In this document: positions 10,145 to 37,142 of the stretch, one piece after another
How positions within the stretch are numbered: position 1 is the first letter of the stretch
How the letters are laid out: every line of letters begins with the position of its first letter
DNA from: a virus
Lineage: Duplodnaviria; Heunggongvirae; Uroviricota; Caudoviricetes
Virus record (IMG/VR): IMGVR_UViG_2737471867_000005
Length of the DNA: 37,142 nucleotides
Direction: 5' to 3' (one strand)
Position numbers and translations under genes: made by a program
The notes under the pieces: model-generated
Told to the model about the DNA's origin: nothing
Seen by the model: the letters and a program-made list of their open reading frames with translations, nothing else
Databases searched by the model: none

Positions 10145-10717
10145 TCAGGGGGATTCATTGATCTTATTTGCCGGAAATTTTCTATAAATGGTAGAAACGC
10201 CTACATCAAAAATCAGTGCAATACGCTGTCTTGATTCTCCGGCCTCGAGTAAACGCCCAATCTGTGCCCACTGTTCGGTGGTCAACTTAGGACGGCGTCC
10301 ACCTACTCTGCCTTTGGCACGAGCTGCAGCCAGCCCTGCCCTGGTACGTTCAACTATCAGTTCGCGTTCCATTTCAGCCATGGCACCCATGACATGAAAA
10401 AAGAAACGGCCCATTGGGGTACTGGTATCAATACTGTCAGTCAGGCTTCTGAAATTCACACCACGCTGGCGCAACTCTTCTATCAGCGTAACAAGATGCC
10501 GCATACTGCGCCCCAACCTGTCCAGCTTCCAGACAACCAGCGTGTCTCCTGCCGATAGTGTCCTGAGTAGTTTTTTCAGCCCCGGTCTGTCGGACTTAGT
10601 GCCACTGATTTTGTCCTCAAAAATCTGCTCACATCCCGCGCAGTTCAGTGCATTACGTTGCAAATCGGTGTTCTGGTCATTTGTTGACACGCGTACATAG
10701 CCAATAAGTATGATCAT
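10145..10717 (-). CDS. serine DNA invertase (Gin/Pin/Cin/Hin family)
   Basis: 190-aa protein with N-terminal IGYVRVSTNDQ catalytic-serine motif and a C-terminal HTH; adjacent to inverted tail-fibre segments. Confidence 0.9.
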   Translation of the reverse strand: MIILIGYVRVSTNDQNTDLQRNALNCAGCEQIFEDKISGTKSDRPGLKKLLRTLSAGDTLVVWKLDRLGRSMRHLVTLIEELRQRGVNFRSLTDSIDTSTPMGRFFFHVMGAMAEMERELIVERTRAGLAAARAKGRVGGRRPKLTTEQWAQIGRLLEAGESRQRIALIFDVGVSTIYRKFPANKINESP

Positions 10718-10738
10718 CCCCCTGAATAAAAACCGGAG

Positions 10739-11215
10739 ATGATGCCAGTTAGCTGTTACCTCTGCATTTTCTTAAACGTTCAATTGGGAGAAGCGGCAAA
10801 ACGGGATGTCGGAACCGGTAATAATCAACTCCCGGACATGTCCGCATTTGGTATGTCGCGAAACGGACAAACTGCCTGGGATATTCTCCCAAATGGTATG
10901 ATTCGACAGGCTGGCACTGTGACACTGACACCAGTTGGTAACTTCAACGCGCAGGTGCTTGGTGGGGTGACGTACTACACCCATTACTACAGGGTTAATT
11001 TCCCCAGACAATTCCCAAATGCACAAATAGCAACGCTGGCAACACTAGCGAGTTACAGCTATTCGACCCAGGCAACAATGGCCGGAAAATCACTGGCAAC
11101 GCATCGCGATACTGATTCTGGCACTGACGTATCAAGAACGCGATTCACTGTGACGTATACGACACCCAATCTCGGCGAAACACCGACACTGCATTTTGAA
11201 GCAATAGGATACTAA
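10739..11215 (+). CDS. alternative tail-fibre C-terminal segment (H variable part prime; no own start, expressed only after inversion)
   Basis: Shares the LGE...AA(K/T)RDVG junction motif with H but runs in the opposite direction; the ATG at 10739 is only an ORF-track start. Confidence 0.65.
   Translation: MMPVSCYLCIFLNVQLGEAAKRDVGTGNNQLPDMSAFGMSRNGQTAWDILPNGMIRQAGTVTLTPVGNFNAQVLGGVTYYTHYYRVNFPRQFPNAQIATLATLASYSYSTQATMAGKSLATHRDTDSGTDVSRTRFTVTYTTPNLGETPTLHFEAIGY
10767..10792. other. invertase recombination site (left, gix/cix-like)
   Basis: 26-bp quasi-palindrome TTTTCTTAAACG-TT-CAATTGGGAGAA with one half-site TTCTCCCAAttg. Confidence 0.55.
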
Positions 11216-11217
11216 AT

Positions 11218-11451
11218 ATGGAGAATATCTATTTCAGCCCGACGACCGTTGGTTTTTATGTTTCTGAACAAGAGCGACCTGATGATGCGGTTGAAGTCTC
11301 GCCAGAGGTGGAGGCATTTTTGAGGGAGTGTGTTATCTGGGGAGCGGATACATTTAACGTAGAGCGAGATGCAGCAACGGTGACATATCCAACAGAACTG
11401 CTTGAATATGTCACCACCTACAACGCCCCCGTTAAATATCCTGCGGATTGA
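11218..11451 (+). CDS. alternative tail fibre assembly protein (short, possibly truncated)
   Basis: 77-aa ORF directly after the alternative fibre end, converging on the active tfa gene. Confidence 0.5.
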   Translation: MENIYFSPTTVGFYVSEQERPDDAVEVSPEVEAFLRECVIWGADTFNVERDAATVTYPTELLEYVTTYNAPVKYPAD

Positions 11452-11842
11452 CAGGCCATACGGGTTTTGCTGTATCAACGCGCATCAGCAAGACCCGGTA
11501 TTTTTTCCATTCAGATAACGCGGCGGTTTCTTCTGCCGTCGCGATTTCCGCATCAAAAGCATCCTGTCTCCAGACTATTTCCTTATCAGCCATAGAACGC
11601 AATACCGTTCTTTTCTGTTCAGCCTGAATAATCTGTTGTTCAGCGGAGAGTGGCGGGATATCAATCCACGCAGGATTACCATTTTTATCAGCCCCCAGCG
11701 TTTTGCCTTGTGGCGCTACGCCTGTGTAAATTGCCATTGTTTCATCATCAACATCAACGCCATTTTCAGGCCATGAACCGGCGCTGATATATACCTCTTT
11801 TAGTGCTTTCGGATAGAAAGAGCCTTTATAAAATTTATTCAT
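11432..11842 (-). CDS. G: tail fibre assembly protein (P2 G-like)
   Basis: ATG 2 nt after the H stop (TAA-GA-ATG); the start is trimmed from the ORF-track 11872. Confidence 0.8.
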   Translation of the reverse strand: MNKFYKGSFYPKALKEVYISAGSWPENGVDVDDETMAIYTGVAPQGKTLGADKNGNPAWIDIPPLSAEQQIIQAEQKRTVLRSMADKEIVWRQDAFDAEIATAEETAALSEWKKYRVLLMRVDTAKPVWPVNPQDI

Positions 11843-11844
11843 TC

Positions 11845-13362
11845 TTAATACCCCAGCGCGATAAAACAACAATCTTCGGTGCCCTCTCCGGATGGCGACC
11901 AGTTCTGAATACTGATATGCGTTCTGCTGGCAATACGCACATTCATCGCGGCATTGTAGCCAGATGTTCCACGGTTTCCGGTCGCAAATAAGCCGGCATA
12001 GGGAAAAGCAAATGGTAAGGCATATCCAGCATCAGCTCCCTTTTGTGTTGCCACCGTTCCCCACTGCAACATAAGTTTCACCGGGTTTCCTGTCGTCGCA
12101 ATGCATGGAATGTAGATGTAGCCACTCCCTGACATCATTGACCTGAAGCTGTCTAAATCCAGTAACTTCGAGGCATTATCTGCTCCAACATCTCGTGTTG
12201 CGGCGGTCCCTAACTGGAGCGCATTTCGGAAGGCTGATACATCAGAAATATCAGCTCCATTAGCCGATTTCTGCATAGCTCCGGAGGCTTTATTTATCGT
12301 TTCTCCCAAACCAAGGTATGTGAGAAGACCAGCTACATCCTTTCCACTCAAATTGGTAAGCGTATTGTCCAGCGGTTGTTTACCTGCCAGCGCATTAAGC
12401 ATTGCCGTGGCAAAGTTCGGATCATTCCCCAGTGCCGCCGCCAGTTCGTTCAGTGTATCCAGTGCAGCAGGTGCAGAACCCACCATTCCTGCAATCGCCG
12501 ATTTCACAAAAGCCGTAGTGGCAATCTGTGTATTGTTGACCGACTGCGCCGCCGTGGGGGCTGTTGGCGTTCCGGTGAGTGCCGGACTCGACAACGGTGC
12601 TTTTAGTGCCAGCGCATTGTTAATGGTGGTACTGAAATTCGGATCATTGTTAATGGCTGCGGCTATTTCTTTCAGCGTGTCCAGCGTGGCTGGCGCACCA
12701 TTAATAAGGGCCGTCAGTGCCGCCTGTACAAACGCAGTGGTCGCAACCTGCGTGGTATTATTCCCCGCCGCTGGCGTTGGCGCTTTGGGGGTTCCGGTAA
12801 ATGTCGGGCTGGCTTTTGGCGCGTACTGTGAATGCGGGTCCGGTGCGGCAAGATGTTTTGCCATCTGATCATCCGCGTACACCTTCAGCTCCAGTGCCTT
12901 GTCATCCACATACTTGCGGGTTGCCAGCACTACAGCAGGGTCGATTTTCAGGGTGATATTGTCCGTGCTGCTGGTAATCAGCACCATGCGCACGGTCTGA
13001 GTGCGCCCGCTACCTTCAGCCAGTTGCGGCTTATAGCTTTCCGGGCAGTTGCCCACGGCAATCAATGCCCCGGACTCATCAAACAAGCCCACTTCACGTA
13101 TCCACCAACCGCCCTCGTTTTCAGGGATCACCTGTTCGGCAATAATCTGGCTGCTGTTCTGCGGGTCGATATAAAGCATATTCAGCGCAGCCCGGCGTTT
13201 CTCATTTACCAGTGCCGTCTGCTTTGCGTCCGGCGTTGGCAATACTCCACCGCCATCGCCCACCGCCATATGGGTAATTTTTAGCGGCACACCGAGCGCG
13301 GCGGCGCTGGCAAGTTTCGCCGCGCCAATATCCGTCAGCAGGGTATAAAATTTTGTGCTCAT
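11845..13362 (-). CDS. H: tail fibre protein H
   Basis: 505-aa protein with a P2 H-like N-terminus (MSTKFYTLLTDIGAAKLA...MAVGDGGG), internal repeats, and a variable C-terminus inside the invertible cassette. Confidence 0.9.
   Translation of the reverse strand: MSTKFYTLLTDIGAAKLASAAALGVPLKITHMAVGDGGGVLPTPDAKQTALVNEKRRAALNMLYIDPQNSSQIIAEQVIPENEGGWWIREVGLFDESGALIAVGNCPESYKPQLAEGSGRTQTVRMVLITSSTDNITLKIDPAVVLATRKYVDDKALELKVYADDQMAKHLAAPDPHSQYAPKASPTFTGTPKAPTPAAGNNTTQVATTAFVQAALTALINGAPATLDTLKEIAAAINNDPNFSTTINNALALKAPLSSPALTGTPTAPTAAQSVNNTQIATTAFVKSAIAGMVGSAPAALDTLNELAAALGNDPNFATAMLNALAGKQPLDNTLTNLSGKDVAGLLTYLGLGETINKASGAMQKSANGADISDVSAFRNALQLGTAATRDVGADNASKLLDLDSFRSMMSGSGYIYIPCIATTGNPVKLMLQWGTVATQKGADAGYALPFAFPYAGLFATGNRGTSGYNAAMNVRIASRTHISIQNWSPSGEGTEDCCFIALGY
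12301..12326. other. invertase recombination site (right, inside H coding sequence)
   Basis: TTCTCCCAAACC-AA-GGTATGTGAGAA; the first half-site resembles the hix/gix/cix half-sites as I recall them. Encodes LTYLGLGE of H. Confidence 0.65.
12361..12798 (-). repeat. tandem duplication (about 2 x 219 bp) within H
   Basis: Protein motifs TGTP.APT.A...NNTQ.ATTAFV and APA.LDTL.E.AAA..NDPNF occur twice in tandem. Confidence 0.55.
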
Positions 13363-21804: not shown

Positions 21805-23571
21805 ATGAACACCACACTGACACCCGCAGATCTCGATCCCCGTCGGCAGGCCATGCTGCTGTACTTTCAGGGATACCGCGTAGCCCGCATTGCTGAAATG
21901 CTGGGCGAGAAAGTTGCAACCGTTCACAGCTGGAAAAAACGCGACAAGTGGGGTGACTATGGGCCGCTGGATCAGATGCAGCTCACCACCGCCGCACGCT
22001 ACTGCCAGCTCATTATGAAGGAGCACAAAGAAGGGAAAGATTTCAAAGAGATTGACCTGCTGGCGCGCCAGTCGGAGCGCCATGCGCGGATCGGCAAGTT
22101 TAACAATGGCGGCAACGAAGCCGACTTAAACCCTAACGTCGCCAACCGCAACAAAGGCCCACGCCGTCAGCCGGAAAAGAACGTTTTCACCGATGAACAG
22201 ATTGAGAAGCTGGAAGAAATTTTCCATTCCTCCATGTTCAACTACCAGCGCCACTGGTGGGAAGCCGGAAAAACCAACCGCATCCGCAACCTGCTGAAGT
22301 CACGCCAGATCGGCGCGACCTTTTACTTTGCCCGTGAAGCCCTGATTGACGCCCTGCTTACCGGACGTAACCAGATTTTCCTTTCCGCCAGTAAGGCACA
22401 GGCCCACGTCTTTAAACAGTACATCATCGACTTCGCCAAAGAAGTAGAGGTGGAGCTGAAAGGCGATCCGATGGTGCTTCCCAACGGGGCCACACTGTAT
22501 TTCCTCGGCACCAATGCCCGCACGGCCCAGAGTTATCACGGCAACCTGTATCTGGATGAATATTTCTGGATACCGAAATTTCAGGAGCTGCGCAAAGTGG
22601 CTTCCGGTATGGCTATTCACAAAAAATGGCGACAAACCTATTTTTCCACGCCATCCAGTCTGACACACAGTGCTTATCCGTTCTGGTCCGGTGCGCTGTT
22701 CAACCGTGGGCGCAACAAAGCCGATAAGGTGGACATCGACCTGTCCCACAGCAATCTGGCCCCCGGCCTGCTGTGCGCAGACGGGCAATACCGCCAGATA
22801 GTCACCGTGGAAGATGCGGTACGCGGCGGCTGTAACCTGTTCGACCTCGACCAGCTACGCATGGAGTACAGCCCGGATGAATACCAGAACCTGCTGATGT
22901 GCGAGTTTGTGGACGATCTCGCGTCCGTGTTTCCGCTCAGCGAGCTGCAGGCGTGCATGGTGGACAGTTGGGAAGTCTGGACCGACTTTCATGCACTGGC
23001 GCTGCGCCCGTTTGGCTGGCGCGAAGTGTGGATCGGTTATGACCCGGCAAAAGGCACGCAAAACGGCGACAGCGCCGGATGCGTGGTGGTGGCACCGCCA
23101 GCCGTGCCGGGTGGTAAGTTCCGCATTCTTGAGCGTCACCAGTGGCGCGGGATGGACTTCCGCGCCCAGGCTGACGCCATCAAAAAACTGACCGAACAGT
23201 ACAACGTGACCTATATCGGTATCGACTCAACCGGCGTTGGTCACGGGGTTTACGAGAACGTGAAAGCGTTTTTTCCTGCCGTCCGGGAGTTTGTCTACAA
23301 CCCCAACGTTAAAAACGCCCTGGTACTCAAGGCCTACGACATTATCAGCCACCGCCGTCTGGAGTTTGACGCCGGACACACCGACATAGCGCAGTCCTTT
23401 ATGGCAATCCGTCGCGCCACCACCGCCAGTGGCAACCGCCCGACCTATGAAGCCAGCCGCAGCGAAGAAGCCAGCCACGCCGATCTGGCCTGGGCAACGA
23501 TGCACGCACTGTTTAACGAACCGCTGCAGGGCGAATCCGCCAATACCAGCAATATTGTGGAGATTTTTTGA
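21805..23571 (+). CDS. P: terminase large (ATPase) subunit P
   Basis: 588-aa ORF. Confidence 0.9.
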   Translation: MNTTLTPADLDPRRQAMLLYFQGYRVARIAEMLGEKVATVHSWKKRDKWGDYGPLDQMQLTTAARYCQLIMKEHKEGKDFKEIDLLARQSERHARIGKFNNGGNEADLNPNVANRNKGPRRQPEKNVFTDEQIEKLEEIFHSSMFNYQRHWWEAGKTNRIRNLLKSRQIGATFYFAREALIDALLTGRNQIFLSASKAQAHVFKQYIIDFAKEVEVELKGDPMVLPNGATLYFLGTNARTAQSYHGNLYLDEYFWIPKFQELRKVASGMAIHKKWRQTYFSTPSSLTHSAYPFWSGALFNRGRNKADKVDIDLSHSNLAPGLLCADGQYRQIVTVEDAVRGGCNLFDLDQLRMEYSPDEYQNLLMCEFVDDLASVFPLSELQACMVDSWEVWTDFHALALRPFGWREVWIGYDPAKGTQNGDSAGCVVVAPPAVPGGKFRILERHQWRGMDFRAQADAIKKLTEQYNVTYIGIDSTGVGHGVYENVKAFFPAVREFVYNPNVKNALVLKAYDIISHRRLEFDAGHTDIAQSFMAIRRATTASGNRPTYEASRSEEASHADLAWATMHALFNEPLQGESANTSNIVEIF

Positions 23572-24599
23572 TGGGAAAGAGTAAGAAGAACCGCGCTGCG
23601 GCGACGAAACAGATCCAGCTTAAAAGTCAAACTACAGCCGAAGCATTCAGCTTCGGCGATCCCGTTCCTGTTCTGGACCGCCGAGAACTGCTGGATTATG
23701 TGGAATGCGTACAGATGGACCGCTGGTATGAGCCGCCCGTCAGCTTTGACGGACTGGCGCGCACCTTCCGCGCTGCCGTGCATCATAGTTCCCCGATTGC
23801 AGTAAAGTGCAACATTCTGACCAGCACCTACATCCCTCACCCGCTGCTCAGCCAGCAGGCTTTTTCGCGTTTTGTTCAGGACTATCTGGTATTTGGTAAC
23901 GCCTACCTGGAGAAACGCACGAACCGCTTCGGTGAAGTTATCGCCCTTGAACCTGCCCTGGCAAAATACACCCGACGCGGGTTAGACCTGGATACCTACT
24001 GGTTTGTGCAATACGGTATGACCACGCAGCCATATCAGTTCACGAAAGGCAGCATCTTTCATCTGATGGAACCGGACATCAACCAGGAGATCTACGGCCT
24101 GCCCGGTTATCTTTCTGCCATTCCGTCAGCCCTGCTCAACGAGTCCGCCACGCTGTTCCGCCGAAAGTATTACATTAACGGCAGTCATGCTGGCTTCATC
24201 ATGTACATGACCGATGCCGCGCAGAACCAGGAGGACGTGAACAACCTCCGCAATGCGATGAAAAGCGCCAAAGGCCCTGGCAACTTCCGCAACCTGTTTA
24301 TGTACTCGCCTAACGGCAAAAAGGACGGGCTTCAGATTATTCCTCTGTCAGAAGTCGCGGCAAAGGATGAATTTTTGAATATCAAGAACGTGAGCCGGGA
24401 TGACATGATGGCAGCACACCGAGTGCCGCCGCAAATGATGGGGATAATACCGAATAATGTTGGGGGATTTGGGGATGTGGAGAAGGCTAGTAAGGTTTTT
24501 ATGCGTAATGAATTGATACCGCTACAAAACAGAATAGAAGAACTCAATAAATGGCTCAAAGATGACATAATAAAATTCATGCCATACAGTTTCATATAA
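23568..24599 (+). CDS. Q: portal protein Q
   Basis: 343-aa ORF; the last ~50 codons change to AT-rich codon usage. Confidence 0.88.
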   Translation: MMGKSKKNRAAATKQIQLKSQTTAEAFSFGDPVPVLDRRELLDYVECVQMDRWYEPPVSFDGLARTFRAAVHHSSPIAVKCNILTSTYIPHPLLSQQAFSRFVQDYLVFGNAYLEKRTNRFGEVIALEPALAKYTRRGLDLDTYWFVQYGMTTQPYQFTKGSIFHLMEPDINQEIYGLPGYLSAIPSALLNESATLFRRKYYINGSHAGFIMYMTDAAQNQEDVNNLRNAMKSAKGPGNFRNLFMYSPNGKKDGLQIIPLSEVAAKDEFLNIKNVSRDDMMAAHRVPPQMMGIIPNNVGGFGDVEKASKVFMRNELIPLQNRIEELNKWLKDDIIKFMPYSFI

Positions 24600-24605
24600 A
24601 ACTAA

Positions 24606-24624
24606 GGGCCGAATACCTCGGCCC
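24606..24624. terminator. GC hairpin between convergent Q and the accessory gene
   Basis: GGGCCGA-atacc-TCGGCCC; weak T-tract on either side. Confidence 0.4.
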
Positions 24625-24630
24625 TCTACA

Positions 24631-26304
24631 TTAAGATTTATGGCTAAAGAGTATACCTGTAACAGAACGTTGATAGGCATCAAGCTTCTCTTGCCTCTGC
24701 TTAAATTTAGATTTGATATCACTAATACTCGGAATACCTATTACTCCAAGGCCTGCACTTAACGCCGCTAAAGTAGTATTGCCAGTCAGCGCTCCAGCAA
24801 TTGCTATAGCACCATTTGCGATACATGGTAGGACATCCAGTCCGTAAATTCTCAATTTCTCTTTTTGGGCTTTTGCAAGAATCCTTTGATGTTCAATAAA
24901 AGCCCGGTCTACATTATCAATTACTTTTTGCGTTGTCCTCGAAAAGCTCTCTGCCGAAGAATTGATTAAAGAGTCAACACCATTTGATAAGATGGATCTT
25001 ACATCCTCCATCAATTTGTTACGTCTCAACTCAATTATTTTATTGACCGGTACATTTCCTAACCATGAAAAACCATCTTGCATACCAGCAGATAACGCAT
25101 GAACCATATGCAAATTTTTTAGTTCAATATCATTGACATCAAAATTAAGAGATTCGTACTCAATAAGCCAAGTATAATAGAGCCAAGATGTGTCTGCATT
25201 TATATATGGAGTACTACCAAGTTCTTGTGCATTACATTTTGCTGAATAGGCTTGCGGCATTCTTCCAATGCAGGAAAGGAAAACCTCCATTCCAGCATAA
25301 TCACCAACAACATTACGTGATATTCTTTTTTTATCAGATAGTAGTTTTTCTAATTGAGTTTTTGGATTTAGCCCCCATGCTGTATCAAAAATAAGTCTAT
25401 CTGCTCTCTTAATATTTTTAAGAACAGCATCAATATCATTCATCGAATAACTAAAATCTTGAAATTCATCGTAGCTTTCGAACCGTCGATCATAGAGATA
25501 TTGCGCATGAGTCAGAGCATAAGGCTCACAAAAACTCATCAAATTTTTTTTGCTCTCAGTTTCAAAATCTCTTCTATCCGGCAAAATTAATACTATTGCT
25601 GGCTCTATATCTTCAAGCGCTACTTCTTTATATGTCATACATGTTAGGACATGCTTCAGAAGTATCCTTGTAAACTCAGCCTTATCTGACTTTTCATAGA
25701 GACGACCGACTCTTAATATAGGACATGGAAGTGAAATAGTATCAACATACAACCCTGCAATAGAGACAGCATTCTCATCAAATGCAGGAAATAAGTCACC
25801 AGAAAAATTAGCTTTAAACTGAGAACCATCCTGCAAATGTATTACACCAATATCGGATGTTACCTGCCAAAACTCTATTACCTGATTATATAACTCAGGA
25901 AAAATACCTTCTATTTGCTTAACATATTCTTCTTGTTGAGAAAAAAAACTTGATGCTTTATGTGGCGTTGCATTAGTTTTTTTCATCAGATAAAACAACT
26001 CGCCAAAATTACTAAAAAGAATATTAAAGTAAGAACTTTGCAAGTCCTGAATAGAGTATTTGTTTTTTATATCTTCTCTTTCTAAAAAGTGATTAACCGC
26101 TGCTCCCATAGCCCTTATTCTGCCATCAACAGTAGAAGGGTCAACTTTACCATCCTGTCGCAGACTTATTCTTTTAAAACTTTCAATAAAACCTTCTACA
26201 AGATGATGAGCTATTTTTAGTTTTCCCGCTTCCAGTTGTTGCTTAATGAGAAAAACACGCTCAGTTAAATCGTCTACATATTCCTCATCTTGATATTTTT
26301 CCAT
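24631..26304 (-). CDS. uncharacterised 557-aa accessory protein with C-terminal glycine-zipper membrane segment
   Basis: Long AT-rich ORF with a GGAG RBS. C-terminal GAIAIAGALTG...LSAGLGVIGIP is hydrophobic and Gly-rich; no motif I can assign. Confidence 0.75.
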   Translation of the reverse strand: MEKYQDEEYVDDLTERVFLIKQQLEAGKLKIAHHLVEGFIESFKRISLRQDGKVDPSTVDGRIRAMGAAVNHFLEREDIKNKYSIQDLQSSYFNILFSNFGELFYLMKKTNATPHKASSFFSQQEEYVKQIEGIFPELYNQVIEFWQVTSDIGVIHLQDGSQFKANFSGDLFPAFDENAVSIAGLYVDTISLPCPILRVGRLYEKSDKAEFTRILLKHVLTCMTYKEVALEDIEPAIVLILPDRRDFETESKKNLMSFCEPYALTHAQYLYDRRFESYDEFQDFSYSMNDIDAVLKNIKRADRLIFDTAWGLNPKTQLEKLLSDKKRISRNVVGDYAGMEVFLSCIGRMPQAYSAKCNAQELGSTPYINADTSWLYYTWLIEYESLNFDVNDIELKNLHMVHALSAGMQDGFSWLGNVPVNKIIELRRNKLMEDVRSILSNGVDSLINSSAESFSRTTQKVIDNVDRAFIEHQRILAKAQKEKLRIYGLDVLPCIANGAIAIAGALTGNTTLAALSAGLGVIGIPSISDIKSKFKQRQEKLDAYQRSVTGILFSHKS

Positions 26305-26405
26305 AAACGCTCCATTAAAATATTTAATAATGCATATAAGAATAATTAATAATATTTACAGTAACTATATCACATTAGATCCAGATTGTTACACTGTTGC
26401 GCGCG

Positions 26406-26424
26406 CTCGTATCCCCGCCACGCC
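26406..26424. other. cos-like site (cohesive-end core)
   Basis: Minus-strand GGCGTGGCGGGGATACGAG matches the first 13 nt of the P2/186 cohesive end as I recall it (GGCGTGGCGGGGAAAGCAT), followed by GCGCGC. Confidence 0.55.
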
Positions 26425-26624
26425 TGCCCACTTTATGTAGTGGTTTTCATGCACCTGCATGACATAAGCAAAAGCACGCCAGTTCTGGCTGGCATCAGCG
26501 AAAACGATCGTCATACTATCATGCGATCTCATGCGCCATATGAAGTTTTCCTGACACAGCCTTGGGTTGGGATAACACCTAACTCAGGAAGATTTTTTGT
26601 GTGTTTGTAACCCACACCTAGAGT

Positions 26625-27794
26625 TTACCAATCCATGTTTGCGGCATTATCCATCTCACGAGTTAAGTAATTAACAAATAAGTCCATATTCCTTTCTGAT
26701 TTCATCGCCTCCGCATAGGTTCCATTAGTTACGTAAGATAGTATTAAAGGACATCCAGATTCAATATAAATTTTTGCTGGGGACAGTTCTCCCTGCCACA
26801 AATTTTCAAGGAAATCGTTAATTAATTGCATTGCTTCAGGTGCCAAAAAATGCACACCATTTCCAAACTTGAAACGTTCTTTATTTTCTCGATGAGGCAG
26901 CAATAGTGGCACAGCCCCTACACTTGAGTGAAATTCCAATGCTTGCCCATCCTTACCGAAGGCGCCATGGGCTACAAAATTACGCACCTGTTTTCTGAGT
27001 ATAAGTAAACGATCATAGAACAATTTTAGGCTGGAAGAGTTAATATCAATGGCTAATTTGAATTTCTCCCCCCATTCTTTTCCAACTTTATCAGCCACAT
27101 CATTCCCATTTTTTATCTCACCCTTCAAGATTGCAATAAGAATGAAAACATGCTCGGTCCAATTGAAAAATGACTCAATTGCAGACGTTGCTAACCACAT
27201 AGCCTCTCTTCGGAGTTCAATTATCTTATTTGATTGTTCAAAAGTGGATTGTAACAGGCTGAAAAAATTATCAGACTTAAACTCACTATCAACTTCCAGT
27301 TTAGACTCTTGGCCAGCAGCAACTTCATCAAGCTTCTGTTTATATAGCTCTAAAAAATAGCAAAACCTATCATAAAGAGAATTAGCATTGTTATTAACAT
27401 TTAGATTTGAAGTCTTTGCTGCATTGTCTGCAAGCGAATCAAAAAAATTCGTAGCAGCTTTAACCCCTGCGCAAATATGTCTCAAAACAGTTTTAGCTTG
27501 CTCTATATCATCATCACTCTTGATAAATATATCTAAACCAAGTTTACGATGTTCTATAATTACGACAGTCCCATCAATCCGGACTGGGATAGAAAAAGAA
27601 ATCTTCTCATCAACCCCACGATTTTTAAATTTCAGTAAATCTACCAAAAGAAAATAAACGAGATAATACGGAGGTAATGAGTCTCCCAAACCCGAGCGCT
27701 TACCCCAAAAATATTCATCAAGCTCGGCAGACTCCATTGTCCCTATGACTCTTCGGACGCGTTCTTCAACTTTAGCCAGATCCATTCCCCACAC
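26625..27794 (-). CDS. uncharacterised 389-aa accessory protein with HEPN-like R-x4-H motif
   Basis: AT-rich ORF; RNFVAH motif at plus 26967..26984. Start uncertain (GTG at 27794 or ATG at 27785). Confidence 0.7.
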   Translation of the reverse strand: MWGMDLAKVEERVRRVIGTMESAELDEYFWGKRSGLGDSLPPYYLVYFLLVDLLKFKNRGVDEKISFSIPVRIDGTVVIIEHRKLGLDIFIKSDDDIEQAKTVLRHICAGVKAATNFFDSLADNAAKTSNLNVNNNANSLYDRFCYFLELYKQKLDEVAAGQESKLEVDSEFKSDNFFSLLQSTFEQSNKIIELRREAMWLATSAIESFFNWTEHVFILIAILKGEIKNGNDVADKVGKEWGEKFKLAIDINSSSLKLFYDRLLILRKQVRNFVAHGAFGKDGQALEFHSSVGAVPLLLPHRENKERFKFGNGVHFLAPEAMQLINDFLENLWQGELSPAKIYIESGCPLILSYVTNGTYAEAMKSERNMDLFVNYLTREMDNAANMDW

Positions 27795-28297: not shown

Positions 28298-30712
28298 TTA
28301 ATACAGGTTCCGCCACTTATCATCTTCCCACAAACGCTGGTTCCGATAGAAGATACGCAAGCCTGCTCCTGACGGAATACTGCCGCCGCGAAGGAGTAAA
28401 TCGACCTCTTTCTCGCTGCCATCAAATCCTCTGGACTTCAGCTCATAGACGAGCTGCAGTCGCTGATGGTCTGTAATTCGCTGTTTGTAGTCTTTACGCC
28501 GTTTCGGTTTAACCAGGCGTAACCTTGCTGCCAGATCCCGGCGCTCTTTTTTGCTCATACTGTGCAGGTAATCGTGCAACTCCTTGTCATCCATGCGGGT
28601 AATGTCCGTTCTGGTGTCCCCATCAGCTGATTTATCTTTCTCCTGTTGGTTCAAATTTTCAGCAAGGGGACAGTTATTGCCACGAGTCCAAGGGGCGCAA
28701 GCGCCCTGGTCGGCTGCCGCCTCCTGAACGTCAACGGCTTTACGAACCATTTTCCACTTCACTGCATGAGTGCAGATCTTGCCCTCTGCAATGGGTGACC
28801 AGATGCCATAAATACGAATGCCGTGATCGCCATAGGCGGTCGGCTCTTCGTTGATTTCATAAGCGGTTCTGATGAGGTGATATTTACGGGGAACCAGTAC
28901 GCCGCCCTGCTTCATGATGTAGGTGGCAAAACAACCAGCATCAGCAGCAGCCAAGATGGCATCAAGGCGCGGGTTATCCAGTACCGGCGCACCTGCTTTT
29001 TTGTCCCCCTGTTGCCTTGCCGCCTGACCAGCCAGCAATCGCAGTTCACGGTAAGCCTGACGCCCCGGAATGCCAAAGAAGCGGAATTGCTGAACACGAT
29101 GCAAAGACGCCCAGGCGTTCACGTATTCAGCGTTATCACGCAGAGATTTACCCGTTTCCTTGCTGATCTCGCCAGCCAGACCACGCCCGTCAATGTTCTT
29201 ACTGATGTATTTCGCTATGTAGCTTGTCGGCGTTCCTTTGCGCGGGTTAATCAGCTCAGACTTAAAGCGCGGCCCCGTGTTATTGCCCAGCTCCTCGCGG
29301 TCTTCACGGATAGCAAACTTACGCAACAATGCAGTAATGGCGCGGCGGTCTTTTTTGCGCATGAAACACAACAGGTGCCAGTGAACTGTGCCGTCGTGAT
29401 GCGGCTCAGCCACCCGCACGCCATACCAGCGCAACCCGGCTTTGTGCATCGCCTTACGAAATGCAGCAAACATACCGACCAGATAATCGCTGCTTTGTCT
29501 TACCGTCGCATTTGTCCAGGTCGGGTTGGGCCTGCCGTTATTTAGCGTGGAATGGAAACGTGACGGACAGGTGATGGTGTAGAAAACGGCGCAGTCACCG
29601 CGCATTTCCGCGATAAGCTCCAGACCTTTAACACAGGCCATCATCTCATTGCGGCGATGCGCAGGGTTGCTGCTGCTGGCGTTTACCACATCCTCCATGT
29701 CCAGCGTGTCGCCGTCTTCGTTCACCAGTTCATGAGAACGGAAAAACTCCAGCGACTTACGGTGCTGCTCACGTTTATGCAACACGGCTTCATAGCTGAC
29801 ATAGGGAGATGCTTTTTTGCTGACAAGGCAGACAGCACGCAACTGCTCTTCCCGCCATTCGCAACGCATCTTCCATAATTTCCGATACCACCAGTCGGCG
29901 CACAACATACGCGCCAGCGAACCCGGAATGAGTTCATAGGGCACGGGTTTACGGCGGTTTCTTTTCCGACGGAGTTGCTCAAACGCAGGCGGGATGACAT
30001 CCAGACGCAGGGTTTCCGCTGCCACCCTTTCCCATGTATTGCGGATTTCTTCTGGCTTAACGTCATCGGTGGCATACAAATCGCCACAAGCGGCATCAAG
30101 GCACATACTCATATGCGCAGCTACCAGGGTGGACAGGCGTTTCACCTGATCCTGACTCATTTCAGGCAGGATCAGCAGGCCGTCCAGCCCTTCATGGCTT
30201 GCCATAAAGCGAAAAGATGCAGATAGCTGACTGTCGCGTACATGCTCCAGTCGTTCCAGACATGGCTTAATCGTCTCACGTAAATAGCGGGAATAAGCCT
30301 TTGGCCTGCCCAGGCTGCTGAAGTATTCAATACGTTGCATCAGCGGCTTGCTGATATGGGAAGGCTGGGCGTTGACGTCCGCCAGAATGACCATATCCGG
30401 ATTAAAACGCTGCTGCTCATGCGCCAGCTTTGCCCGACTAATGAGCTTATCCTGTTCCATTTCGCGCTGGACAGGATCACGGGATTCATTAAAGAAATAA
30501 CGCTCCCAGACCTGATCACTCAGCGCCTCACGGCGCAGCTGTTCCTGCTCGTTATCGGCAGCGTACAGAGTGATCAGGTTTGAAAGCGTAGAAACCGGCG
30601 CAACTTCCACCGTGTCCAGATAAGGGTTAATGGCCTTTTTCGGGCTGTTCCATGAGAACGATGCGGCGACCTCGTTAAAGCCGCTGCAGTTGTTCATATC
30701 AGCATGGCTCAT
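28298..30712 (-). CDS. A: rolling-circle replication initiator A
   Basis: 804-aa ORF in the P2 gene A position. Confidence 0.85.
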
Positions 30713-33712: not shown

Positions 33713-34309
33713 ATGTCAACATCAAAGTACCCAAGTGAGATCAAAATAAATCCCAATAAAGGTGGTAAGGCTGCGATTGAGCGATTAGTCGAAGCTTATG
33801 GCTTTACGACACGACAGGCTTTAGCTGATCACTTGGAAGTATCAAAAAGCACTCTGGCGAACAGGTATTTGCGGGATACGTTTCCTGCAGACTGGATAAT
33901 CCAATGTGCTCTTGAAACAGGAACCTCACTGAAATGGTTAACCACCGGGCAAGGACTTAAGCAAAGCTCGCTGACAGTAGCCACAGAAGAGCTTCCCAAG
34001 TTTCGCCTTACCGCAGGCAAAATGATTGAAGATGGTTCATATGTCTTCGATTCATCATTTCTTCCTGCAAATCTTTCATCACCAATTGTTATTCTGGATG
34101 GGCTTGTCACATACATTTGTGATCAAAAATTTTCTGAAGTACTTGATGGGCACTGGTTAATCAACATCGACGGAACCTATTCCATTCGAAAAATCACAAA
34201 GCTTCCAAAAGGTATGATTAAAATTACAACTACAGAGAATAGCTTTGAATGTGCATTTTCTGATATTGAAGTGGTTGCTTGTATAAGAAGTACAATAGTT
34301 TCAAATTGA
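33713..34309 (+). CDS. cI: CI immunity repressor (phage 186 type)
   Basis: 198-aa protein with an N-terminal HTH; position and sequence are 186 CI-like. Confidence 0.85.
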   Translation: MSTSKYPSEIKINPNKGGKAAIERLVEAYGFTTRQALADHLEVSKSTLANRYLRDTFPADWIIQCALETGTSLKWLTTGQGLKQSSLTVATEELPKFRLTAGKMIEDGSYVFDSSFLPANLSSPIVILDGLVTYICDQKFSEVLDGHWLINIDGTYSIRKITKLPKGMIKITTTENSFECAFSDIEVVACIRSTIVSN

Positions 34310-34329: not shown

Positions 34330-36006
34330 ATGAATTCATTTTCCATCGTTATATTCTTATTAGCATTTCTCGCCCCTGTTCTAGCTATAATATTATTTAA
34401 GCAAAGTAAAGAACACAAAACCGCCATAGATAACCTGACGGCTAACAACATAGCTCTTTCCAGCCAACTGAAAGAAAATCAAGAAGAATTAGCACAGACT
34501 GTACGAGATCTATCAGAGCTTGAAGGACGAGCTGCACCATTATGGCAATACGTAGAATTGCACAGCGCAGTGATGGAAGCAGAGAATAAGATAAAAAATG
34601 CAGACTCAATAGCCAGGCAAAAAATAGAAGAAGCCCAAATAAAGGCTGCTAAGACAGTAAACGAAGCAAATTATCAAGCTCAGATAACAATAAGCAACGC
34701 TAATAGCGAAGCTATAGCAATCACCAAAGACGCTCGCGATGCACGCCTGAAAGCCAAAGAACGTCTTGATAATGCCAACAGTAAAGCAAATGAGCTGATC
34801 TCAAATGCTAATGACAACGCAGTAAAAATTATTTCCGATGCAGAAGAAAGAGCAAAAGAGATTGCTGGTTCAGCATATGAAGCTAAAGAGTTTGCAGAAA
34901 AATATGAAGCAGTTGCCAAATCAATGAAAAATAAAATTGAAGGTTATGGCGATGAATGGATCATCCCTAACCGTAGTGTACTTGATGAATTGGCAGAAAA
35001 TTATGAGTTTACAGATGCAGGCAAGGAATTACAAAAAGCCAGGGAGTTAACAAAATCATTAATAAAAACTAATAAAGCAGCTTCGTGTGATTATGTTGAG
35101 CCAAACAGGCGTAATACTGCTATCAACTTTGTTTTGGATGCCTTCAATGGAAGAGTTGACAGTATTTTATCAAAAGTCAAACACAACAATTTTGGAAAAC
35201 TTTCCCAAGAAATAAAAGATGCATTTCAACTTGTAAATTATAATGGCTCTGCTTTTAAATCCGCAAAAATAAGTGACATCTATCTTCAGGCACGACTCAA
35301 CGAGCTAAAATGGGGAGTTGCAGTTAATGAAATTATGCTCAAAGAAAAAGAGGAGCAAAGAAGGATTAAAGAACAGCTTCGTGAAGAGGAAAGAGCTCGT
35401 AGAGAGTATGAAAAAGCGATAAAAGAAGCCGAAAAAGAAGAGAAAGCTATTCAGCAAGCTATAAATAAAGCGACGAAAGAGCTTATGCTTGCAAATGAAG
35501 AACAACGCTTAGCTTTAGAGCAAAAAATAGCTGAACTACAGTTAAAATATGAAGAAGCTGAAGCTAAAAACCAACGAGCTATTTCTATGGCTCAACAAAC
35601 TAGATCAGGCCATGTTTATATAATTAGCAATATTGGCTCATTTGGCGAAGATGTATATAAAATTGGAATGACACGCCGCCTTGAACCACTTGATCGTGTT
35701 CGTGAACTTGGGGATGCTAGTGTTCCTTTTTCGTTCGATGTTCATGCGATGATTTATAGTGATGATGCACCGTCATTAGAAAATCATCTGCATAAAGTCT
35801 TCAACGAAAAGCAGGTCAATAAAATTAACTCACGAAAAGAGTTTTTTAACGTAAATATTAAAGAAATTAAATCGGTTATTGAAGATATGAACATCAATGC
35901 CCACTGGACAATGTTTGCAGAGGCGAAAGAATATAGAGAGTCACTAGCTATTGAGCAGGAACGCAAAGCAGCCACTTCCGCCAACGATGAACTACATGTT
36001 GCTTAG
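34330..36006 (+). CDS. membrane-anchored coiled-coil protein with C-terminal T5orf172/GIY-YIG-like domain
   Basis: N-terminal TM helix (FSIVIFLLAFLAPVLAIILF), a long K/E/A-rich coiled coil, and a C-terminal GHVYIISN...YKIGMT motif from about 35608. AT-rich; inserted between cI and int. Confidence 0.8.
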   Translation: MNSFSIVIFLLAFLAPVLAIILFKQSKEHKTAIDNLTANNIALSSQLKENQEELAQTVRDLSELEGRAAPLWQYVELHSAVMEAENKIKNADSIARQKIEEAQIKAAKTVNEANYQAQITISNANSEAIAITKDARDARLKAKERLDNANSKANELISNANDNAVKIISDAEERAKEIAGSAYEAKEFAEKYEAVAKSMKNKIEGYGDEWIIPNRSVLDELAENYEFTDAGKELQKARELTKSLIKTNKAASCDYVEPNRRNTAINFVLDAFNGRVDSILSKVKHNNFGKLSQEIKDAFQLVNYNGSAFKSAKISDIYLQARLNELKWGVAVNEIMLKEKEEQRRIKEQLREEERARREYEKAIKEAEKEEKAIQQAINKATKELMLANEEQRLALEQKIAELQLKYEEAEAKNQRAISMAQQTRSGHVYIISNIGSFGEDVYKIGMTRRLEPLDRVRELGDASVPFSFDVHAMIYSDDAPSLENHLHKVFNEKQVNKINSRKEFFNVNIKEIKSVIEDMNINAHWTMFAEAKEYRESLAIEQERKAATSANDELHVA

Positions 36007-36089: not shown

Positions 36090-37142
36090 ATGGCAGTACG
36101 AAAACTCACCACAGGAAAATGGCTGTGCGAATGTTATCCCGCCGGACGTAGTGGACGTCGTGTGCGTAAACAATTCGCCACCAAAGGCGAAGCTCTGGCT
36201 TTTGAGCGTCACACGATGGAAGAAACCGAAGCAAAGCCCTGGCTAGGTGAATCAGTGGATCGTCGAACACTGAAAGATGTGGTTGAGCTATGGTTCAAAC
36301 TACATGGTAAATCACTGACTGCTGGGCAGCATGTCTATGACAAATTGCTGCTGATGGTTGACGCTCTGGGCAATCCCCTTGCAACTGATCTAACCTCTAA
36401 AATGTTTGCCCACTATCGAGATAAACGCCTGACAGGCGAGATCTACTTCAGCGAGAAATGGAAGAAAGGAGCAAGCCCGGTCACCATTAACCTGGAGCAA
36501 AGCTATCTAAGTAGTGTTTTTAGCGAACTATCCCGTCTGGGCGAATGGTCGTATCCGAACCCACTGGAGAACATGCGAAAATTCACCATCGCAGAAAAAG
36601 AGATGGCATGGCTTACCCATGAGCAGATTGTTGAATTGCTGGCTGATTGCAAACGTCAGGACCCAATTCTGGCACTGGTAGTTAAGATATGCTTAAGCAC
36701 AGGCGCACGCTGGCGTGAAGCCGTAAATCTTACCCGCTCACAGGTGACCAAATACCGAATTACCTTTGTCAGAACGAAGGGGAAGAAAAACAGAAGCATC
36801 CCTATCAGTAAAGAGCTTTACGAAGAGATCATGGCGCTCGATGGGTTCAATTTCTTCACAGACTGCTATTTTCAATTTTTATCCGTGATGGAAAAAACGT
36901 CTATCGTGCTCCCTCGCGGTCAACTCACACACGTTCTGCGCCATACGTTTGCAGCGCACTTCATGATGTCGGGTGGAAACATTCTGGCCTTACAAAAAAT
37001 TCTCGGACACCACGATATAAAAATGACTATGCGTTACGCACATCTGGCACCGGATCATCTGGAAACGGCGCTCCGTTTCAATCCTCTGGCAACGCTGCCA
37101 AGTGGCGACAAAGTGGCGGCAGCGGTTGGCATTACCCCGTAA
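36090..37142 (+). CDS. int: tyrosine integrase (P2 Int family)
   Basis: 350-aa ORF with C-terminal HxLRHT and MRYAHL catalytic tyrosine region; its stop codon is the last 3 nt of the window. Confidence 0.9.
   Translation: MAVRKLTTGKWLCECYPAGRSGRRVRKQFATKGEALAFERHTMEETEAKPWLGESVDRRTLKDVVELWFKLHGKSLTAGQHVYDKLLLMVDALGNPLATDLTSKMFAHYRDKRLTGEIYFSEKWKKGASPVTINLEQSYLSSVFSELSRLGEWSYPNPLENMRKFTIAEKEMAWLTHEQIVELLADCKRQDPILALVVKICLSTGARWREAVNLTRSQVTKYRITFVRTKGKKNRSIPISKELYEEIMALDGFNFFTDCYFQFLSVMEKTSIVLPRGQLTHVLRHTFAAHFMMSGGNILALQKILGHHDIKMTMRYAHLAPDHLETALRFNPLATLPSGDKVAAAVGITP

Follow-up and report, generated by a model that had tools for sequence, protein, structure and literature searches.

A major reservoir of anti-phage systems in P2-family phages is the interval between the replication gene A and the portal gene Q, close to the cohesive-end site cos, also known as the gpA-gpQ hotspot or old/tin locus (Rousset et al. 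2022, PMC9122126; Moura de Sousa et al. 2026, PMC13586616; iLund4u preprint 10.1101/2024.10.15.618418). These studies view the hotspot at the level of genes and as one locus, and state that the mechanism behind the very fast turnover of its cassettes is unknown. Rousset et al. (PMC9122126) speculate that a cos end together with a second homologous recombination event mediates the exchange, a proposal which the block boundaries described below fit. In this study we examined IMG/VR virus record IMGVR_UViG_2737471867_000005, a stretch of 37,142 nucleotides (nt) referred to as the window, which is a P2/186-like (Peduoviridae) prophage of Escherichia coli identical in sequence to strain 1283 (NZ_CP023371.1), and focused on positions 24440-24599, the 3' end of gene Q. 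The window carries its accessory cargo between Q and A, adjoining cos, in the same order Q, cos, A as the described hotspot, and this cargo is likewise AT-rich and highly variable among near-identical phages. Our analyses support, with a probability of about 0.8, the reading of 24440-24599 as a cargo-linked allele of the portal tail in the Q-cos slot of the hotspot, part of a block that would be exchanged by a crossover in Q and a junction at cos. Unlike the published picture of the hotspot, the Q-side boundary lies here inside the portal coding sequence, the tail is an allele linked to the cargo, and the locus splits at cos. The openly searchable literature yielded no account of a variable portal C-terminus, or of a junction inside Q, in P2-like phages, older papers on the P2 tin/old region lying outside that search. 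The region is an ordinary member of a known hotspot, seen at its Q-side boundary, the useful detail of which is apparently undescribed.

Morons of lambdoid phages, as characterised by Hendrix and colleagues, are described as lying between genes, with their boundaries at gene borders. Much as in morons, the window cargo would form an additional transcription unit, deviant in composition and ending in a terminator of its own, between elements that are adjacent in relatives (Q and cos adjoin each other in P2, 186 and locus L025); the promoter-like match upstream of it (26392-26364, minus strand, 9-of-12 consensus) is no better than chance in number. Unlike in lambdoid morons, the boundary of shared ancestry extends here ~270 nt into an essential structural gene. 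Hitch-hiking of a flanking gene next to a hypervariable locus was reportedly recognised by Nelson and Selander in 1994 for gnd, beside the O-antigen rfb cluster of E. coli. As at gnd/rfb, the diversity of a conserved gene rises toward a non-homologous, strongly selected cassette whose nearest flank is inseparable from it by recombination, and by this analogy the pattern in Q may be regarded as flank hitch-hiking of the same kind. In contrast to gnd/rfb, it occurs in a phage, affects the C-terminus of one essential protein, shows a gradient of 0.05 to 0.6 within 300 nt and is accompanied by a shift in composition. Finally, recombination at cos of phage lambda, studied by Stahl, Kobayashi and Feiss, involves terminase-made double-strand ends and cohesive-end joining of co-infecting genomes. 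Similarly, one junction of each exchanged block falls here in the short interval that contains the cohesive end, but cos-associated recombination is not known from P2-like phages, and the sequence also fits a crossover in a 30-nt invariant core.

The breakpoint inside Q was located by comparing the window with nine loci that carry the same 557-amino-acid (aa) cargo gene and whose Q bodies differ from that of the window by 3-9%. These loci showed 20-70 mismatches in 23571-24323, 0-1 in 24324-24599 and 3-12 in the cargo gene, the final mismatch of the Q body falling at 24317 or 24323. Phages with other cargo gave the reciprocal pattern: their Q is 92-100% identical to the Q body of the window (100% over the first 300 nt in the case of Cartapus), and they diverge from 24338 on, the position of the first block-specific difference, at synonymous sites first and then in the protein. 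Past 24338, Cartapus differs from the window by 14 synonymous changes in ~100 nt while its protein remains identical. A max-chi-square analysis of informative sites placed the switch of parent between 24323 and 24338 (chi2 ~84, permutation p <= 0.0005). In the best trio, 40 informative sites to the left of 24323 favoured the other-cargo locus against 4-5 for the same-cargo locus, and to the right of 24338 the corresponding counts were 0 and 56-58. The left boundary varies among cargo clusters (24323, 24428, 24461-24488, 24512), which points to homologous crossovers at many sites and not to a fixed, site-specific position. Q is therefore an intragenic mosaic, with different nearest relatives on each side, its frame and conserved residues kept, and breakpoints scattered over several positions across the family.

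These results retain and modify what a preliminary description of the window had proposed, namely that the accessory island was acquired by recombination with a breakpoint inside Q that replaced the portal C-terminus. A recombination breakpoint does lie inside Q, and tail and accessory DNA form one co-inherited block, but the breakpoint is at 24324-24337 and not at the shift in composition. The portal C-terminus has been exchanged, although for a homologous and intact allele that keeps 12 invariant positions, not for foreign sequence. Acquisition of the island by recombination is likewise supported, not as a single event in this genome but as a lineage-wide regularity of the known hotspot.

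The association between tail and cargo was assessed in 80 IMG/VR loci and three phage records with Q proteins 93-99% identical, in which the last ~35 residues of Q are hypervariable and the remainder is almost invariant. Clustering of 81 loci yielded 53 cargo clusters and 51 tail clusters paired almost one-to-one (adjusted Rand index 0.93), with few exceptions: a cargo that occurs with two tails, and a tail shared by two cargo clusters. Pairs sharing the same cargo had a tail identity of 0.99 even when their Q bodies were less than 95% identical, whereas in pairs with different cargo the identity fell to 0.61 in the tail despite 0.94 in the body; the Q C-terminus does not, accordingly, align with uniform identity among these portals. 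The relation is the same whatever the level of Q divergence, and another 80 loci, drawn from one-genome-per-species data, extend it across genera. Nucleotide diversity climbs steadily toward the Q stop codon, from 0.02-0.1 in the body through ~0.1 over 24320-24440 to 0.2-0.6 in the last 40 codons, and the rise starts where the protein is invariant. In parallel, GC content at third codon positions (GC3) goes from ~0.65 in the body to 0.25-0.4 in the last 40 codons. The distance between the Q stop codon and cos ranges from 155 to 3491 nt, and gene content varies among closely related phages.

A second block boundary, missed in the preliminary description, lies at cos, the cohesive end of which was placed at 26406-26424 from alignments with the cos of Cartapus and with the cohesive ends annotated in P2 and 186. 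When the window was compared with locus L033, which carries a different cargo on the Q side (slot 1), nothing aligned in 24513-26397 and homology resumed exactly at 26398, with 99.4% identity up to 29000. To the right, the nine loci sharing the 557-aa cargo have 13-24 mismatches in the ~110 nt from 26430 (12-20% diverged) and their homology with the window stops at 26540, past which the E. coli loci of this group each carry other genes (for example DUF2971, a DinI-like gene or hypothetical genes). The window gene beyond cos (slot 2, 26625-27794) is 99% identical to its copies in L033 and L051, both of which have different slot-1 cargo and different Q tails. Furthermore, in 14 other cargo clusters, pairs sharing the Q-side cargo and differing past cos are identical up to the cohesive end, and their first differences, +26 to +54 nt into the cos alignment, are the first polymorphic sites after it. 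The hotspot thus consists of two independently assorting slots split at cos, and the Q tail follows the Q-side slot. Because the genomes of P2 and 186 are numbered from this end, slot 1 corresponds to the left terminal ~2 kb of the packaged chromosome.

We propose that, in the accessory slot between Q and cos, the tail forms the inner end of the left homology arm. The exchange unit would extend from ~24324 to the cos core at 26398-26429, comprising the last ~90 codons of Q, the terminator, the 557-aa gene and its leader, and would be placed on a phage backbone by homologous recombination between related phages, with one crossover inside Q (24324-24337) and the other junction at cos, the left end of the packaged chromosome. 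The crossover in Q was probably ordinary homologous recombination; the junction at cos may result from the joining of cohesive ends or from a crossover within the invariant core of 30 nt, since the sequence fits both. Upstream of the tail, Q would be homogenised among phages, and each cargo type would keep its own diverged, functional tail. Since there is no homology between the Q tail and the cargo, recombination cannot separate the last ~90-280 nt of Q from the cassette, and the tail would diverge along with it.

The abrupt switch of the last ~50 Q codons to an AT-rich usage resembling that of the cargo, and unlike the rest of Q, was borne out far beyond chance where the preliminary description had seen it. 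GC content is 0.534 in the Q body, 0.356 in 24440-24599 and 0.367 in the next 1 kb, and GC3 declines from 0.665 in codons 1-251 to 0.59 in codons 252-290 and 0.385 in codons 291-342. The maximum-likelihood change point of GC3 is codon 292, at position 24444; Fisher tests gave p values of 3e-4 (GC3) and 6e-5 (all positions). Of 2112 overlapping 160-nt core windows between 3165 and 24439, not one had a GC content of 0.356 or less, the core minimum being 0.369. Codon usage was scored as a synonymous-codon log-likelihood ratio (LLR) of a cargo model over a core model, conditional on the amino acid. The last 52 codons of Q reached +22.2, compared with 22.8 +/- 6.6 in cargo windows and -23.8 +/- 10.1 in core windows, and 0 of 755 core windows attained the value of the tail. 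The segment of Q that belongs to the block upstream of the shift (24338-24440, GC3 0.59) is core-like, with an LLR of -7.6.

Loci with little or GC-normal DNA downstream of Q served as controls. In P2, with its Q-side slot empty, 167 nt separate the Q stop codon from cos and the tail GC3 is 0.71; the corresponding values are 176 nt and 0.86 in 186, while L025 has a spacer of 155 nt and a tail GC content of 0.50. Six loci with GC-normal downstream DNA have tail GC3 values of 0.58-0.81. In contrast, the 99 distinct tails adjoining AT-rich DNA have a GC3 of 0.27-0.44, every cargo-linked tail in the sample is AT-rich, and the GC contents of tail and cargo are correlated over 52 cargo types (r = 0.63, p = 6.5e-7). 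Among more distant P2-like portals, those of Pseudomonas and Stutzerimonas have conserved tails, GC-normal in the Pseudomonas type. The GC-normal tails of the controls indicate that an AT-rich, variable tail is not intrinsic to the portal gene and that it accompanies AT-rich Q-cos cargo.

Different scenarios might explain this association. In one of them, a P2-like phage of a low-GC host was the common source of tail and cargo, and the shift marks the edge of the import, as the preliminary description implied. The equivalence of tail and cargo codon usage, their correlated GC contents and a shift of the tail amino acids toward K, N and I agree with such an origin. However, the first ~39 codons of the block, which starts at 24324-24337, have a GC3 of 0.59 and core-like codons, so that the donor Q was not AT-rich overall and the AT shift itself is not the junction. 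Moreover, GC3 drops at the same codon (~296) in all 99 AT-rich tails whatever the position of the breakpoint, and a Yersinia relative of the module has a tail GC3 of 0.51 against 0.57 in the body. No low-GC donor emerged either: a 38-nt stretch of the tail had no exact match in one genome per species of 185,579 species, and in a DNA search of phage records only one E. coli record with the same module was close to the tail, all others being 73-87% identical. Given the common onset of AT-richness and the GC-normal upstream part of the block, simple import from a low-GC donor fits poorly and we regard it as unlikely. We favour a regional process as the likelier source of the AT-richness, which might be a change biased toward AT in a flank where recombination is rare, or selection that favours AT-rich DNA beside the cargo. 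Alternatively, relaxed constraint or diversifying selection on the portal C-terminus might make the tail hypervariable and AT-rich by nature, irrespective of cargo acquisition. This would account for the many substitutions tolerated among the last 35 positions, only ~12 of which are invariant; we find it scarcely credible, given the GC-normal tails of P2, 186, L025 and the loci with GC-normal downstream DNA, the conserved tails of the Pseudomonas and Stutzerimonas portals, a tail identity that tracks the identity of the cargo and not that of the Q body, and an excess of divergence that reaches protein-invariant codons, beyond the reach of protein-level selection.

Portals trigger some defence systems, such as Avs4, and tail and cargo might be functionally co-adapted, such that each accessory gene requires, or tolerates, no portal tail but its own, their pairing being kept by selection, for example because it spares the resident phage's own packaging. 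The almost one-to-one pairing would be expected under such selection, as would the strong conservation of tail and terminator between E. coli and Citrobacter (95%, against 82% in the Q body and 76% in the cargo). Nevertheless, physical adjacency without intervening homology suffices to explain the pairing, which also has its exceptions; more than 50 unrelated cargo types would each require a coupling of their own; and the cargo remains intact in decayed prophages with a pseudogene Q, so it does not need the portal. Co-adaptation is therefore very improbable. We give equally little credence to a specific form of it, in which each Q-cos cassette would bring a portal C-terminal helix matched to its cargo, making its own packaging invisible or resistant to the defence gene or providing a mark of self against rival P2-like phages and P4 satellites; if so, selection would maintain both the one-to-one pairing and the conservation of tail plus terminator. 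The reading of the tail as a cargo-linked allele, exchanged as a block between Q and cos, has points against it as well. The shift in composition (24444) and the breakpoint (24324-24337) do not coincide, lying ~110 nt apart, and linkage alone does not account for the AT-rich tail. The E. coli loci with the same cargo share a near-identical left boundary (24317-24323), which amounts to one ancestral crossover edge for this cargo. The invariant cos core restricts the resolution of the right boundary to ~30 nt: its positions fall within 26398-26430, an interval that contains the cohesive end but also the sole invariant homology available. Lastly, between the window and the Citrobacter freundii locus L171, tail and terminator (24480-24660) are 95% identical, the Q body ~82% and the cargo ~76%, a pattern not predicted by plain co-inheritance; identity falls ~30 nt into the 3' end of the cargo gene.

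The homologues of the 557-aa protein suggest that the linkage between tail and cargo is old. In C. freundii the homologue (78% identical protein) adjoins a P2-like portal whose tail matches 33 of 35 residues; in Klebsiella aerogenes (75%) it is also adjacent to a portal, with a diverged tail that keeps the rare signature QNRIEELNEWL, and in Yersinia enterocolitica (67%) the tail of the adjacent portal has diverged further. The rare QNRIEELN signature is common to the tails that accompany the Citrobacter and Klebsiella homologues. The 557-aa gene is present in 17 of 5426 E. coli genomes. Neither it nor the 389-aa slot-2 gene has a Pfam or NCBIfam match, and PADLOC gave only weak matches (DitB, 1.6e-10, to the 557-aa protein; LeoBC, 0.003). 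The cargo proteins WP_024235280, WP_064770590, WP_097335535 and WP_088748150 are not mentioned in the searchable literature.

Other homologues of the 557-aa gene occur outside phages, or in decayed prophage remnants beside a pseudogenised 3' end of Q. Intact chromosomal homologues in Enterobacter kobei (L175), Klebsiella quasipneumoniae (L180) and Pseudescherichia vulneris (L181) lie beside an Asp-Al_Ex permease gene, a type of gene that also flanks the window prophage (935-2620). What is left of Q beside each of the three is a 3' pseudogene fragment that contains stop codons and in which the tail can still be recognised; an Ogr/Delta gene is present in L180 as well. These loci look like decayed P2-like prophages that retain only the cargo. 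In E. coli PE15 (L169) and ECCNB20-2 (L170), a deletion fuses truncated tail genes to an N-terminally truncated Q, and the remnants retain the Q tail, the 557-aa cargo, cos and gene A. Two Y. enterocolitica loci (L173, L174) have a 72% identical homologue beside the gene of a giant LPD5/LPD1/MuF_C protein, with no portal nearby, which places the cargo family on a second kind of mobile element as well. A complete P2-like phage genome with the Q tail and cargo of the window is recorded as the 37,446-bp circular 'plasmid' p13P477T-2 of a pig E. coli strain (L001, CP019275.1); the chromosome and a third replicon of that strain match as well (H81, H84), which suggests that the phage was excised or replicating, or that this one strain contains several copies.

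At the protein level, twelve tail positions are invariant across 30 alleles (V309, F310, N313, E314, L315, P317, L318, Q319, N326, W328, F336 and Y339), about 12 of the last 35, which argues that the tails brought in by exchange are functional versions. When 24 diverse Q proteins were combined into a profile, it gave a weak match to the HK97 portal structure 8cez (E 7.5e-4), which aligned the start of the tail to HK97 residues ~320-341, just past the conserved VPP...G stretch. On our reading of this alignment, the start of the tail may lie in the helix that leads from the region of the tunnel loop toward the crown. For the tail, a sequence search of the PDB gave no match, and a single-sequence structure model was too poor for use (predicted local distance difference test score, pLDDT, 32). 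An antisense open reading frame (ORF) of 87 aa (24332-24595, minus strand), nearly coincident with the block's segment of Q, was rejected as a gene: the frame is open over at least 80 codons in 73% of alleles and extends into the conserved Q body, and its product is of low complexity.

In the window and ~160 related loci, the left end of the Q-side exchange unit lies within the portal gene and its right end at the cohesive end, a result from which concrete, testable predictions of crossover positions follow for a hotspot with very fast turnover. The Q-side cassette can be reliably recognised from the portal C-terminus, and the tail allele could serve as a practical marker to type or find cassettes. 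Caution is required in annotation and phylogeny, since trees of P2-like portals are chimeric in the last ~90 codons.

Table 1. Coordinates of the Q-cos-A region of the window and of the segments defined in this study
Feature	Position	Strand	Basis or remarks
Terminase large subunit gene P	21805-23571	+	Upstream core gene; Pfam Terminase_5, Terminase_6N, Terminase_6C
Portal gene Q, whole ORF (ATG 23571)	23571-24599	+	342 aa, intact; Pfam Phage_portal, E 3.3e-17
Q body, codons 1-251, core-type	23571-24323	+	GC3 0.665; recombines freely among related phages
Breakpoint interval, left edge of the cargo-linked block	24324-24337	+	Max-chi-square and mismatch positions
Block-owned Q segment of near-normal composition	24338-24440	+	Protein conserved; synonymous differences from other alleles
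AT-rich cargo-linked allele of the portal C-terminal tail, codons 291-342 and stop	24441-24599	+	GC3 0.385; codon LLR +22.2
Terminator hairpin of the convergent cargo gene	24604-24626	-	Terminator-like match, 10-pair stem
Slot-1 cargo gene, 557 aa	24631-26304	-	Converges on Q; GC3 0.247
AT-rich non-coding cargo leader, right end of cargo-specific heterologous DNA	26305-26397		Homology with a locus of different slot-1 cargo resumes at 26398
Invariant cos core, right edge of the slot-1 block	26398-26429		Includes the 19-nt cohesive end 26406-26424
cos-right flank	26430-26540		Homologous among phages; travels with slot 2
Slot-2 cargo gene, 389 aa, AT-rich	26625-27794	-	99% identical copies in L033 and L051
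Replication gene A, far border of the gpA-gpQ hotspot	28298-30712	-	Pfam Phage_GPA, E 1e-126

The terminator hairpin that separates the convergent Q and 557-aa genes has a fold energy of -15.4 kcal/mol (z -3.3) and a U-tract overlapping the final amino-acid codon of Q together with its stop. It is identical in the Citrobacter relative, and P2, 186 and L025 have a different, native terminator at this place. A small ORF lies between the slot-2 gene and gene A. Beside Phage_GPA, the terminase domains and Phage_portal, the core Pfam matches of the window include GPO and the P2 capsid.

Elsewhere in the window, an AT-rich gene (GC ~0.37) of 558 aa with DUF4041 and T5orf172/MUG113 (GIY-YIG-like) domains (34330-36006, plus strand) separates the CI repressor (33713-34309) from the integrase (36090-37142) and marks a further accessory slot in the prophage; this position has been noted in the literature as a minor hotspot. 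A stretch of lower GC within the tail genes (10145-11872) contains a resolvase/invertase (10145-10717), an opposite-strand, Gp53-like C-terminal fragment of a tail fibre (10739-11215) and a tail-fibre assembly gene (11432-11872), and looks like an invertible tail-fibre switch.

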